DNA of 64,000 nucleotides from an uncultured Candidatus Rokubacteria bacterium (lineage in GTDB: Bacteria > Methylomirabilota > Methylomirabilia > Rokubacteriales > CSP1-6), in the NCBI GenBank assembly GCA_963789955.1, contig CAWBMV010000034.1:128001-192000 (forward strand), in the 5' to 3' direction. Shown in pieces: positions 44,477-64,000 of the stretch. How positions within the stretch are numbered: position 1 is the first letter of the stretch; every line of letters starts with the position of its first letter. The position numbers and the translations under genes are program-made. The notes beneath the pieces are model-generated. The model worked only from the letters and a program-made list of their open reading frames with translations, did not search any database and had not been told where the DNA came from.

Positions 44477-46084
44477 TCACTCGACGAGCTTGCCGTACTC
44501 CAGCTTCAACACTCGGTCACCGAGATGGTAATAGCGGTCGTCGTGGCTGATGACGAGCACGGTCTTGCCCCGGGCCCGCAGCTCCGGAAGGATCTGGCGG
44601 TAGAAGATGTCGCGGTAGTGCGCGTCCTGGTCCGCCGCCCACTCGTCGAAGACGTAGATCGGCCGGTCCTCCAGGAACGCCGTCAGCAGCGCGAGCCGCT
44701 TGCGCTGACCCTGCGAGAGCGCGATCGTCGAGAAGCGCCCGCCCTCCACGCGCACCTTGGCGTCGAGCTCGAGCCGCACCAGGAATTTCCGGGCGCGCTC
44801 GTCGAGGCGGTCATCCGCGAGCCCGAGCAGGCTGTCGAACAGGTAGAAATCGGAGAACACCGGAGAGAAGTGCTGGCCATACCATTCCCGGTTCTTGTCG
44901 TCGATCAGCTGCCCGTTGAGCCGGATGGCGCCCCGAGTCGGCGGATAGAGCCCGGTCAGCACCTTCATGAGCGTCGATTTGCCGCTGCCGTTGCCACCGA
45001 CCAGAAAAACCAGCTCGTTCGGCCGCAAGGTGAGGTCGAGCGGACCCAGGACGAAGCTCTCTGCCGCGTCATCGCCGTACGAGAAGACCACCCCATCGAC
45101 CTCCAGCTGCGCGACGGAGGCAGGGGCGCCACGACTGGTTCACCCTCCGCGATGGCGGGCCCTGACAACGAGATACCGAGATCCCTCACCTTCTCGAGCG
45201 CGATGCGGCCGCGGGCGAGGATCGGCCAGGAGTCCATGAGGCTCCACACGGGCGTCATCATGTAGAGCGTGACGAGCACGTAGCCGGTCAAGGTCTCCCA
45301 GCTCATCGCGTGCAGCCGGGGAATGGTGAAGAGCAACACGCCGAGCAGCGCGTAGAAGAGGAGCTGATTCCAGCTCGCCGCGACGACGTGGTGGCGCACC
45401 CCGCTCATCGAGGCTTGCCGTAACGTCTCGAGCGTCGGGTCGACCCGCCTGGTCACGAACTCGCGACGCCGGCCCGCGTGGACTTTGAGCTCCTTGATGC
45501 CCTCGGTCAGCGCCCGCAAGTGCTGAAAGAGGAGCTCGCGCGTATCCCGGGCGCGCTGGAGGTGGCGAAAGGCCCGGGATTCGAGCAGGCGATGAACCGC
45601 GGCGCCGGCTACCACCAACGTGATCACTCCCAACAGAACCGGCCAGGACAGCCAGGCGAGGTACACCGCGCAGCCGATCAGAATCGCGACGTTCATGGCG
45701 AGGGTCGGAATGTTGATCGTCGCCCAGCCGATCATCGCGACATCATCCGTCAATGTCGTCAGAACTCGCGGGATGCCGACCTCTTCGAGGCGCCGCAGGG
45801 GAGTTGCCAGGACCTGCCGGCAGAGGTTCGCGGACAGGCGCGTCAGCGTTCGCTCAGCGAAGTAGTTGAGCAACATCTGCGCGCAGCATGTTGCTGCCGA
45901 CCTTGGCGAGGAGAAGCCCGGCGAAGCCGGCGGCGAGGAGACCGCTTCCACCCTGGCCTCGCGCGAGCGTGTGGTTGACCAGCGCGATCAAGGCCGCGCT
46001 GGCAGCCCCGCTCAAGAGGCTGACGCCGGTGGCGGCGACCGCCAGGATGCGCTCACGCCGATCGATGAACGACAGGAGGATCAG
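44477..46084 (-). CDS. Cyclic-peptide export ABC transporter (SyrD/PvdE/YojI family), frameshifted
   Basis: TM domain with TLTDDV, EGIKELK; GGNGSGKST, VFSDFYLF, LSQGQRKRLAL, FDEWAADQD, ISHDDRY. Start approximate. Confidence 0.9.
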
Positions 46085-61618: not shown

Positions 61619-64000
61619 ATCCGGCCTTCCTCGAAGTCGTCGGCCACAGTGGGCGGCGACTCCACGACGCTCGCGGTTTCGAGGCGCGTCGTCACGAAGG
61701 CCAGCAGTGTCGCCACACTCGGCCGCTCGAGGAGCTGGACCATCGGAAGGGCGATGCCGAAATCGCGCTCGATGCGGTTCTTGAGCTCGACCGCCATCAG
61801 CGAGTCGAACCCGAGCTCACCGAGCGGCTGCTCGGCGTCCAGCTCGGCTGTCGGCACACCGGTGATCGCCGCGACTTGATCTGTCAAATAGCCGGCCAGG
61901 GTGTCGCGCCGCGCGACCTCGTCCAGCTGTCGAATCGACCCGGCGCCGGGGACCGGAGGCCCGGATACTCCATCCTGCAACGCGTCGCCCAGATCGCGGA
62001 GAAGCGGGGCCTGCATGAACGTCGGATAGAGCTGCCGCCAGCGCCGCCAGTCTATCGGGAGCACCGCCGCCTGCGTTGCGCCGCTGAGCAGGATACGCCG
62101 GAGCGCCTCGATCCCGGCGGCCGGCGTGATCATCGCCTCCTCCGCGGTTGCTCCGACCGGCCGGCGCGCCACGCGCGCCGCCATTCCGATTTCCGACCAC
62201 GCCGCCCAGTTGATGCTCACCGCGTGGCGGCCGAGGGCCAGGCGGTGGTGCGCGAGGGAGTCGAGGAATGCATTGGCGGCGGCATATCCGCTGACCAGGG
62301 GCGAGCTGAGCACGGAAGCCGCCGACGAGAACAGCACGAAGAAGTCGAGCGGTGCGTCGGCGAGGAGCCGATGCAACAGCCACGCGCCGGCGATCTTCGC
62401 GCGGCCGACCGCGATCTGCGCGGCCGCGTCGTACTCTTCCATCGCCTGATACTGCATGACTCCGGCCGCATGGATGACGCCACGAATCGGTGGCCAGCCC
62501 TGCTGCCGGAAGCCCTCGAGAAATTCCCCCAGTGCGCGTGCGTCGCCGACGTCGATGCCGGCCAGGTGAACGCTGGCTCCCTGGCGCTCGAGATCACGGA
62601 CCGCTCTCGCCTGATCCGCCTGCGTCCCCGGGGGGAGCGTCGACCAGAGCGCGCGAGGCGGAAGCGAGGTGCGGCCCAGGAGGATCAGGCGCCGGGCGCC
62701 TTGCTCGACCATCCACCGTGCGACCTCCAACCCGAGTCCGCCCAGCCCTCCGGTGACGAGGTACGTGGCGTCGACGCGCCAATGGAGGTTCCGAGACGTC
62801 GGGCTCCGGCGGAACCGTCCGAGGCGGGCGACGAATCGGACACCGTCGCGAAACGCGACCTGATCCTCACCGTCGCTCGCGGCGATCTCGTCGTAGAGCA
62901 ACGCCGCGGAAGCATTCGGAGGGGTCTGGGCGTCGAGGTCGAGCAGACCTCCCCATAGCTCTGAATGCTCGACGGCCAGACTGCGACCGAAGCCCCACAG
63001 CGGCGACTGGGCTACCGCCAGCGGCGTCGGTCCACCAACCGGCTGAGCGCCGCGCGTCACGAGCCACATTCTTGGCCGCGGGCCCTCGGCGGGCCGAGTC
63101 AGGGCCTGCACGACCCGCACGGCGCTCATCCACCCGAGCGTCTGGACCGTCTCGAGCGGCCCGATGTCCAGCTGATCGCCAGACGGACTGTCGAGGCTCC
63201 ACAGATGAACGACGTGGGTGACCGGACGCTCGCCGGGCGCGGCCGCATCGATCAGCGATCGCATATCGGATACCGCGTCGACACGAATCGTGTAGGTGTC
63301 GTGCCCGGTCTGCTCGAACCGCGCGCCGCGACGGACGCGCACGCATCGCCCGCCCCGCGATCCGAGCTCGGCCGCCAGCGCCCGGCCCACTCCGCCCTCG
63401 TCCTCGAAGATCAGCCAGGCCGAATCCGTCGTCGCGGGCGCCGCTCGTTCGCGCCCTCGTCGCTCCCATCGAAGCTGGTAGAGCCAGTTGTCCGCACTCC
63501 GCGTCGTCGGCGCCGCATCGTCGGAGTCCAGGTACCAGAAGCGAACGCCGAGCAGCTCTGCGACGACGGCCTCGTGCTCGTCGTAGATCCGGATGTCGCC
63601 GCTCAAGACGTTGCTCGCACCCTTCGTGGCCTTCACGGCACGCGCGTGCGACCAGAATCGTTCGCCGCGGAGCGGACGGTGGATACGGACCTCGTCGATG
63701 CCGCCTCCGACGAACGCTCCGCGGGTACGCGAGGCACCCTCCGCCGGACGGATGGCGGCGAGCAGTTGACCACACGCGTCCGCCACCGCGGGATGGAAGC
63801 GATACTTGACCATGTCCGCGCGCAGCGCCGGCACTGCTTGCACCTCGCTCACGACCTCCTCGCCGGCCCGCCACAAGCGCACGAGACCTTGAAAGCACGG
63901 TCCCCACTGGTTTCCCCGCCGGGCCAGCTCGTGGTAAAACGCCGTCCCGGCCAGCTCCTCTGTGCACCGTGCGCGCGCCTCGTTCAACGCCGACGGCGCC
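61615..64000 (-). CDS. Type I PKS C-terminal part: DH - KR - ACP (5' end beyond window)
   Basis: WGPCFQG and HPAVADA (DH second half), TGGLGGLG, HAAG, YAAAN, LGFDSLMAVEL. Ends DDFEEGRI. Confidence 0.92.
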   Translation of the reverse strand, partial: APSALNEARARCTEELAGTAFYHELARRGNQWGPCFQGLVRLWRAGEEVVSEVQAVPALRADMVKYRFHPAVADACGQLLAAIRPAEGASRTRGAFVGGGIDEVRIHRPLRGERFWSHARAVKATKGASNVLSGDIRIYDEHEAVVAELLGVRFWYLDSDDAAPTTRSADNWLYQLRWERRGRERAAPATTDSAWLIFEDEGGVGRALAAELGSRGGRCVRVRRGARFEQTGHDTYTIRVDAVSDMRSLIDAAAPGERPVTHVVHLWSLDSPSGDQLDIGPLETVQTLGWMSAVRVVQALTRPAEGPRPRMWLVTRGAQPVGGPTPLAVAQSPLWGFGRSLAVEHSELWGGLLDLDAQTPPNASAALLYDEIAASDGEDQVAFRDGVRFVARLGRFRRSPTSRNLHWRVDATYLVTGGLGGLGLEVARWMVEQGARRLILLGRTSLPPRALWSTLPPGTQADQARAVRDLERQGASVHLAGIDVGDARALGEFLEGFRQQGWPPIRGVIHAAGVMQYQAMEEYDAAAQIAVGRAKIAGAWLLHRLLADAPLDFFVLFSSAASVLSSPLVSGYAAANAFLDSLAHHRLALGRHAVSINWAAWSEIGMAARVARRPVGATAEEAMITPAAGIEALRRILLSGATQAAVLPIDWRRWRQLYPTFMQAPLLRDLGDALQDGVSGPPVPGAGSIRQLDEVARRDTLAGYLTDQVAAITGVPTAELDAEQPLGELGFDSLMAVELKNRIERDFGIALPMVQLLERPSVATLLAFVTTRLETASVVESPPTVADDFEEGRI

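Follow-up and report, generated by a model that had tools for sequence, protein, structure and literature searches.

The 64,000-nucleotide stretch analysed here (the window; G000:C34:128001-192000, contig CAWBMV010000034.1 of an uncultured Candidatus Rokubacteria bacterium) carries the last five of the ten megasynthase genes of a hybrid polyketide synthase-nonribosomal peptide synthetase (PKS-NRPS) cluster. With a probability of roughly 0.4, we propose that this cluster makes a methyl-branched polyketide joined to Leu, 4-amino-3-hydroxybutanoyl (GABOB) and Gly, closed to a 24-membered macrolactone. Window positions are contig positions minus 128000, and the numbering is continued beyond 64000, where the cluster runs on for 36 kb, to about 99.6 kb. 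Two features set the cluster apart from the known assembly lines compared here: the predicted priming of a PKS by a keto acid, and a terminal thioesterase (TE) with a Cys nucleophile and without the usual His.

Organization of the cluster

Domains were called with Pfam on 74 stop-to-stop frames, mostly of the minus strand, and by self-tblastn. All genes lie on the minus strand. The order begins beyond the window with a type II thioesterase (TEII, C34:226782-227561), a phosphopantetheinyl transferase (PPTase, C34:226036-226785; seven other members in its 90%-identity cluster) and an A-KR-PCP loader (C34:221837-226039). There follow module 1, KS-AT-DH-MT-ER-KR-ACP (C34: about 214250-221847), module 2, KS-AT-MT-ACP (C34: about 209810-214240), module 3, KS-AT-DH-MT-ER-KR-ACP (C34:202001-about 209807), and module 4, KS-AT-DH-MT-KR-ACP (C34:195228-201993), so that four C-methyltransferase (C-MT) and two ER domains are found beyond 64000. 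Module 5, KS-AT-DH-KR-ACP, starts at C34:195231 and enters the window with its DH-KR-ACP part (61615..64000). Within the window the line continues with NRPS 1 (58268..61618), NRPS 2 (54919..58271), PKS module 6 with KS-AT-KR-ACP (50303..54922) and NRPS 3 (46081..50306), and ends in an ABC exporter (44477..46084). Each NRPS gene encodes a docking domain followed by C-A-PCP, with a TE (46081..46917) at the end of NRPS 3. A dienelactone-hydrolase-family gene (C34:227815-228774) lies beyond the TEII gene.

NRPS 1 is intact (1116 aa), and P0294 (81% identity) and P0295 (65%) are intact relatives of NRPS 3. The five megasynthase genes in the window are joined by 4-bp overlaps at all four junctions (TTGA, ATGA, ATGA, GTGA), and a possible CTGA overlap joins NRPS 3 to the exporter. 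The exporter is split by a frame break; TIGR01194, the SyrD/PvdE-type cyclic-peptide family, is the best family for both halves (265.7 and 178.2 bits, each below the whole-protein cut-off of 286.2), and the protein is 48% identical to an intact exporter of a sister cluster, G041. The product is likely exported by this adjacent transporter. KS, AT and ACP are present in every PKS module, the C-A-PCP modules are collinear with them, and a release domain and a PPTase are present, as in hybrid cis-acyltransferase (cis-AT) modular PKS-NRPS systems. Catalytic motifs are kept in the KS, AT, DH, MT, ER, C, A and carrier domains wherever they could be read. We consider it highly probable that this is a 14-gene hybrid cis-AT PKS-NRPS cluster of the architecture described, intact in life.

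The first-pass annotation of 44477-64000 had described five megasynthase genes with 4-bp overlaps followed by a SyrD/PvdE-type exporter, three adenylation codes and a malonyl-type AT in module 6, all of which were recovered in that stretch, the codes identically. The proposed hybrid line, with acyl-Leu-Gly-(C2, beta-OH)-Gly at its end and a dedicated exporter, is supported by the domain order and the codes. The cluster start does lie beyond 64000, and a probably uncultured lineage agrees with the Candidatus Rokubacteria names in the 90%-identity clusters of two window proteins; of ten proteins looked up, five were present in the collection and two of their clusters gave an organism name. A PKS with DH and KR and no ER describes module 5 correctly, and the lack of E, Cy and MT domains is true of the window (Pfam); for the whole cluster the ER and MT parts of these statements fail, given the domains beyond 64000. 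The simple unsaturated acyl-lipopeptide without methylation had to be abandoned, as the acyl part is predicted to start from a keto-acid-derived hydroxy acid and to be extended by five PKS modules, four of which carry a C-MT.

The putative keto-acid loader

The loader matches StsA (6ULW; E=3e-233), an A-KR-PCP module that activates 2-ketoisocaproate. The hallmarks of keto-acid activation given in passages of PMC11253843 and PMC13643306 are an aliphatic residue in place of Asp235 and a Gly-Met motif. Both are found in the loader: Val stands at the Asp235 position, aligned to Ile306 of StsA, and AWGMSE is aligned to G414-M415 of StsA, with the embedded KR (PF08659) preceding the PCP (PF00550). 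The code VGVWIGASGK has 8 of 10 residues in common with that of StsA, which was read by hand from the alignment. We infer that the loader activates a 2-keto acid, with 2-ketoisocaproate as the putative substrate.

StsA and the cereulide-type modules, Dol15D and CrpD are likewise A-KR-PCP modules with an N-terminal pseudo-Asub piece, an aliphatic residue at Asp235 and Gly-Met. In these modules the hydroxy acid enters a depsipeptide via a C domain, whereas here it would serve as the starter that a KS accepts and that five PKS modules elongate. A full-length loader was not found in 250 other genomes of the phylum by a strict first-pass search, which sets a floor.

The cluster works like the cis-AT PKS-NRPS lines of cyanobacteria and myxobacteria and belongs broadly with them. 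The loading didomain of McyG (PDB 4R0M) from microcystin synthesis is an A-PCP homolog of the loader (E=1e-156) that also feeds a KS. The McyG loader has no KR (4R0M covers only A-PCP), and a peptide exporter is common near such cyanobacterial clusters. Compared with McyG and the cyanobacterial lines, the window cluster lacks aminotransferase, E and Cy domains and differs in module order and amino acids. Microcystin and nodularin synthetases contain an aminotransferase module for Adda as well as five or more E-containing amino-acid modules; identity with them was rejected, because our cluster has neither aminotransferase nor E domain, and three amino-acid modules. The microsclerodermins, compared by description only, resemble the predicted product in a GABOB made from Gly and malonate with a KR and in a polyketide-derived acyl unit; they are hexapeptides with a beta-amino acid and Trp. 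Cyanobacterial cis-AT PKSs with embedded C-MTs of the curacin CurMT type, as described in part of PMC7327777, likewise combine malonyl-type ATs with branches introduced by S-adenosylmethionine-dependent C-MTs.

Sister clusters and relatives

At least 77 loader loci were found in the genome collection, and two among those listed continue with KS-AT-DH-MT-ER-KR, both in deltaproteobacterial metagenome-assembled genomes (G041/L023 and G042/L043). Both share with the window cluster the loader, the five-module polyketide front in the same order, including the KR-less module 2, the TEII and the PPTase. G041, whose genes are 40-53% identical to those of the window cluster, also shares the His-less Cys TE and the SyrD-type exporter. 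It adds a KS-AT-KR module, after which come C-A-PCP, C-A-PCP-TE, exporter, TEII and PPTase, and it is intact save one break in the TE; alignment to a distant reference also raised the possibility of two breaks in the last A domain. The G041 cluster lies at C6:402-459 kb, and the mass predicted for its product differs from that of the window cluster. G042 is frame-broken, its module 3 has no ER, and no type I TE was seen at the cluster end. The two NRPS modules in each sister have code pairs unlike those of the window, and neither sister has a GABOB module. KS1 and KS6, which follow NRPS-type carriers, share only 42-51% identity with the internal G041 KSs, compared with 54-70% for the internal KSs of the window's genome.

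Polysaccharide genes border each of the sisters on either side: a flippase and glycosyltransferases in both, an O-antigen ligase and an exosortase in G041, and sugar dehydrogenases and epimerases in G042. An IS66 transposase lies directly upstream of the G041 loader. A 3-kb gap between the last PKS and the first NRPS of this cluster (G041:C6:413460-416480, L097) contains a 316-aa open reading frame (ORF) without Pfam match at 1e-8.

Further relatives were seen in metagenomes, including module 1 orthologues at 62-84% identity. P0295 and P0298, close relatives of NRPS 3 with TEs at 75% and 56% identity, have an A-domain code that we take to be Val-like; as it is unlike the window's, the terminal residue seems to be swapped within the family. 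P0298 and the module 1 orthologue P0249 possibly represent one more whole sister cluster. The end of the metagenome contig L138 resembles that of G041 (PKS modules, two NRPS modules, His-less Cys TE, exporter, TEII, PPTase). With an ER and no visible MT in its last full PKS module, this contig is another likely relative.

These comparisons make it quite improbable that the cluster produces an already described compound. The best matches of module 1 and NRPS 1 are metagenome proteins; the characterised proteins among the 120 listed for module 1, AjuB and the xenocoumacin PKS, reach 39-42%, and none was found among the 120 listed for NRPS 1. The best near-length homolog of NRPS 1 (P0011) is 58% identical, matches over its full length in 40 related genomes reach at most 47%, and nothing above 49% was found in metagenomes (80 loci kept of 140). 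The continuation of only 2 of the 77 loader loci listed into a DH-MT-ER-KR module argues in the same direction. No characterised cluster was matched and no description was found by open-access phrase searches; MIBiG and BiG-FAM lay outside the searches.

Extender modules and the predicted product

The A-domain codes are DAWFLGHVVK in NRPS 1 and DILQLGVIWK in both NRPS 2 and NRPS 3, the last read against the intact orthologue at 81% identity. DAWFLGNVVK is given as a Leu code in a portion of PMC7524897, and DILQLGMIWK as a Gly code in an excerpt of PMC12283262. The exact window codes were not found in open-access papers by phrase search; the exact codes for Leu and the keto acid could still be listed in the code tables of PMC12283262 and PMC13643306.

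The AT of module 6 contains GHSIG and HAFH, the latter a malonyl motif according to the relevant lines of PMC7327777. The cluster ATs read HAFH; AT1 reads YGFH, as does its orthologue, and AT3 reads AFHS across a break. The idea that AT3 is inactive was rejected, as it had arisen from alignment to the degenerate G041 copy and a three-frame reading shows the AFHS motif. Since the ATs are malonyl-type, the methyl branches are predicted from the four C-MT domains, all of which retain the glycine-rich motif and the catalytic His. In KR1 and KR3, His replaces the catalytic Tyr. This variant occurs in 11 of 48 KR motifs of the fetched loci, with 3 of the 11 in the two sister clusters and 8 of the 11 in MT-bearing modules. 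Among MT-bearing modules, 8 of 12 have it, and it recurs in cyanobacterial and other modules (L025, L026, L028, L036, L044, L068, L192). Its recurrence in other clusters led us to reject damage as its origin. KR5 lacks LDD, so that the last double bond may have either geometry.

If the line is collinear, the domains and motifs suggest the following synthesis. The loader would activate the 2-keto acid and reduce it to a 2-hydroxy acyl starter, to which modules 1-5 would add five malonyl units: reduced with a methyl; ketone with a methyl or gem-dimethyl; reduced with a methyl; methyl-alkene; and alkene. From their codes, NRPS 1 and NRPS 2 would add Leu and Gly, module 6 would extend the Gly to 4-amino-3-hydroxybutanoyl, and NRPS 3 would add a further Gly. 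The predicted chain, a C20/C21 hydroxy-keto-dienoyl-Leu-GABOB-Gly, is (CH3)2CH-CH2-CH(O-)-CH2-CH(CH3)-CO-C(CH3)(H or CH3)-CH2-CH(CH3)-CH=C(CH3)-CH=CH-CO-Leu-GABOB-Gly. If the starter hydroxyl closes the ring, a 24-membered macrolactone of C32H53N3O7 ([M+H]+ 592.396) or C33H55N3O7 (606.411) would result; the linear acids are computed to be 18 Da heavier, at 610.406 or 624.422.

The thioesterase and chain release

The nucleophile elbow of the TE is GACIGG, with Cys in place of Ser; Glu occupies acid position I, and Asp stands at the canonical His position (PGHDSG). The window TE was aligned with the 120 best of 621 matches at E<=1e-30 (n=121). Cys is the nucleophile in 120 of the 121 sequences and Glu stands at acid position I in 101, while the canonical His column holds Asp in 92, Asn in 20 and His in 5. 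The canonical type I NRPS TE triad (Ser/Cys-His-Asp, with G-x-H after the last strand) is thus absent, and Asp246 stands in the His column. His245, one residue before this column, is found in the window TE and its three closest relatives (9/121 overall). A model built from the alignment had a pLDDT of 86, compared with 40 for the single-sequence model. In it, Asp246 lies where the loop that follows the last strand ends, directly before a short helix; this is the place of the His in AB3403 (LPGDH). A His-less TE was not described in the open-access papers reached by phrase searches.

AB3403 (PDB 4ZXH) is the best solved match, of the TE by fold and of the PCP-TE by sequence. It shares the Cys nucleophile and an acid at position I, but keeps its His, whereas the window TE clade has Asp or Asn there and Glu as the acid. 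The Cys TEs of ObiF1 and SulM have a position-II Asp and form four-membered rings from a beta-OH or beta-amino residue, according to passages of PMC11298585. In the window TE, by contrast, the acid is Glu at position I, and Asp after strand 7 occurs in 15 of the 121 sequences. A beta-lactone or beta-lactam TE was rejected: the Cys is present, but the conserved acid is at position I and the last A domain has a Gly code, and with Gly as last residue a ring of the ObiF1/SulM type is impossible.

TEs at G000:C1, L012, L138 and L139 belong to the same clade, and those at C1, L138 and L139 adjoin SyrD-type exporters. The C1 locus (G000:C1:531700-541500, L230-L231) is a second, smaller NRPS cluster with C domains, a TE (GTCTGG, AEDSG), a SyrD-like exporter and a PPTase; a fatty-acid hydroxylase family gene adjoins it. 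In P0336, P0356, P0362, P0363, P0366 and others of about 1,470 aa, a thiamine-pyrophosphate enzyme is fused to an A-PCP-TE of this clade.

For the macrolactone, the TE would load the chain on its Cys, and the absence of the usual His would favour acyl transfer over hydrolysis. His245 may serve as the base in this sub-branch. The starter hydroxyl appears to be the best-placed nucleophile on the chain, and this is the weakest step of the proposal.

The acceptor could also be another molecule. Under this explanation, which we consider doubtful, the TE is a transacylase that hands the polyketide-peptide to a surface polysaccharide, a glycolipid or an amine, and the product decorates or anchors the envelope. 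The sugar-polymer genes on both sides of G041 and G042, the clade-wide combination of Cys (120/121) with Asp/Asn at the His column (112/121), and the lack of a type I TE found at the G042 end are consistent with it. However, the island that carries the window cluster was inserted away from polysaccharide loci and has a peptide exporter, and no sugar genes were found on it in the Pfam scan of the 74 frames. The off-site His of the window TE and its three closest relatives also argues against transfer to a glycan. The same is true of the other SyrD-linked members: in the flanking-gene scan (81 ORFs around G041, G042, G000:C1, L138 and L139), no exopolysaccharide genes were found among the few flanking ORFs at C1, L138 and L139 (only two ORFs each for L138 and L139).

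Slow hydrolysis by the TE, or release by the TEII or the dienelactone-hydrolase-family protein, is less probable again; it would give a linear acyl-Leu-GABOB-Gly-OH, close to the lipopeptide first envisaged. Cys acyl-enzymes hydrolyse spontaneously, and His245 could complete a Cys-His-Glu triad. AB3403, the closest solved TE, also has Cys and no known product (PMC11298585, PMC10510592). Against hydrolysis, the strictly conserved His-less site across the clade argues for controlled transfer, and the simplest reason for a dedicated hydroxy-acid starter is that it serves to form an ester, like the hydroxy acids of the depsipeptide modules treated in part of PMC13643306.

Several points weigh against the macrolactone itself. 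Its structure is a prediction from genes, and a secondary alcohol that no His base assists is a poor nucleophile. A hemiketal between the starter hydroxyl and the module 2 ketone could form instead, and the position of the sister clusters inside exopolysaccharide loci favours transfer to a glycan. The Leu-like code is one position off the published Leu code, and the Gly-like code one position off the Gly code compared, that of the PMC12283262 excerpt. AT3 is degenerate in the sister G041, without catalytic Ser, and the His in KR1 and KR3 makes reduction in modules 1 and 3 uncertain. Finally, frame breaks occur at 3.45 per kb in the cluster compared with 0.88 per kb in core genes, a fourfold difference, and these breaks were checked on contigs and orthologues rather than on raw reads of the source sample.

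Frame breaks

Frame breaks were counted by protein-guided alignment, which was used instead of a codon-model Viterbi and a frame-purity scan because both were too coarse for break counts. In 52,716 aligned bases of the cluster there are 182 breaks, 43 of them within the window, and two in-frame stops. For comparison, core genes were represented by 130 ORFs taken from 20 stretches in two genomes of the genus, 74 of which were aligned to the window's genome at >=60% identity. Of these, 43 were broken, with 87 breaks in 98.7 kb. The core-gene stops (n=16) may in part be due to the stop-to-stop ends of the queries and cannot be set against the number in the cluster. Single-base insertions exceed deletions in both sets (125 to 57 in the cluster, 62 to 25 in core genes). 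The loader, NRPS 1, TEII and PPTase gave no breaks at 40-46% identity, which indicates that the aligner does not invent many.

The breaks are patchy: none occurs from the loader through most of module 1, and then 16 fall in 0.85 kb against P0175, an 84%-identical module 1 orthologue of 2521 aa that reads through them to an ACP. Similarly, P0294, the 81%-identical A-PCP-TE, reads through 28 breaks. Within the window there are two in the exporter (near 45886 and 45128), about 27 in NRPS 3, seven in NRPS 2 and seven in module 6, all in its KS. Short-read contigs were compared from four runs, each from a different study (three on soil and one on a wetland), out of 20 runs sharing words with the stretch. 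They cover 44-64 kb in about 4,000 pieces, of which the 32 listed are 89-100% identical. Gaps were present in all five of these pieces that span a predicted break and absent from 25 of the 27 others; contigs from two studies have one gap across the exporter break at 45128.

The first-pass annotation had allowed that the indels might be real and the cluster dead. A decaying pseudogene island that makes nothing in the source strain is, in our view, very unlikely, even with 182 breaks at four times the core-gene rate and flanking repeats that have drifted at 6 of 94 bases, so that the insertion is not recent. There are only two in-frame stops, the insertion excess is that of the core genes, which are broken too, the breaks are patchy and the catalytic motifs are kept. 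Near-identical short-read contigs from the four studies span the stretch, and those over predicted breaks differ by gaps there. The frame breaks are thus likely assembly or sequencing errors, and the cluster is likely intact in the living cell. The pieces from RNA run X9 (93-100% identical) were not taken as evidence of transcription, since they are contigs, DNA may be present and a silent control is absent.

The island and its insertion site

The cluster lies on an island that encodes its own TEII, PPTase and exporter, with overlapping genes. Empty sites show that it went into the promoter and 5' end of a host gene. The host gene encodes a dihydroxy-acid/L-arabinonate dehydratase (42617..44350, minus strand; NF004784, 897 bits, above cut-off), which is contiguous with a short-chain dehydrogenase/reductase (SDR) gene in relatives. 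Its 5' end and promoter are duplicated as a 94-bp direct repeat, comprising a TATAAT-like box, GGAGG and the first 20 dehydratase codons. The downstream copy is at 44289..44382 and the upstream copy, beyond the window, at G000:C34:228773-228866 (100773-100866 in window numbering). The copies are identical at 88 of 94 bases and enclose an insert of 56,390 bp. By script, 11 of 16 same-genus genomes have the empty site, with dehydratase, single repeat and SDR gene contiguous; in two of the 16 the repeat adjoins the SDR gene while the dehydratase side is missing, and three were outside the comparison. The island end at the dehydratase site has no match in any same-genus genome compared.

The flanking repeat and the empty site are features expected of an integrase-mobilised island. 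An integrase or transposase and a tRNA target are lacking: no recombinase family was found among the 74 frames scanned, the island being tiled by the listed genes, and no tRNA or tmRNA in 70 kb around it. About 60 bases just inside the right island end match the SDR gene at 80-85% and may be what is left of a duplication that was once longer. The GC content is 70% for the island and 68% for the contig. The upstream repeat sets the 20 dehydratase codons in frame with the dienelactone-hydrolase-family gene (L003:7815-8866, G000:C34:227815-228866), and its TATAAT is changed to TATACT; the copy before the dehydratase retains TATAAT.

In two same-genus genomes (L227 in G003 and L228 in G010) the dehydratase beside the repeat is largely missing, and the site is thus unstable in other ways too. 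Just past the dehydratase, at window 40211-42324, lie a DUF1343 gene and the N-acetylmuramic acid 6-phosphate etherase gene murQ. The latter matches profile positions 4-182 of 300 in one frame, probably owing to another assembly break.

Implications

Rokubacteria are uncultured soil bacteria, for which parts of PMC7298704 report moderate cluster numbers, KS domains being present and many condensation domains rare. In this cluster they have a complete line of ten megasynthases with a concrete predicted mass and sharp boundaries. The near-intact sister G041 and the near-identical pieces in soil and wetland data of four studies make it directly testable, and it supplies a defined substrate for the clade of His-less Cys thioesterases. 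More speculatively, and with low confidence, the cluster may be a free-standing, exporter-linked member of an as yet undescribed family of keto-acid-primed PKS-NRPS lines, whose other members, in exopolysaccharide loci, would hang long, methyl-branched polyketide-peptides on surface glycans through a His-less Cys TE acting as a transacylase. The Rokubacteria copy would then have departed from such loci on an integrase-free island, and its TE sub-branch would have gained the off-site His. If true, this would connect a new chain-release chemistry with envelope lipids of a new class, or else with a macrolactone new to science from a phylum without cultured members.

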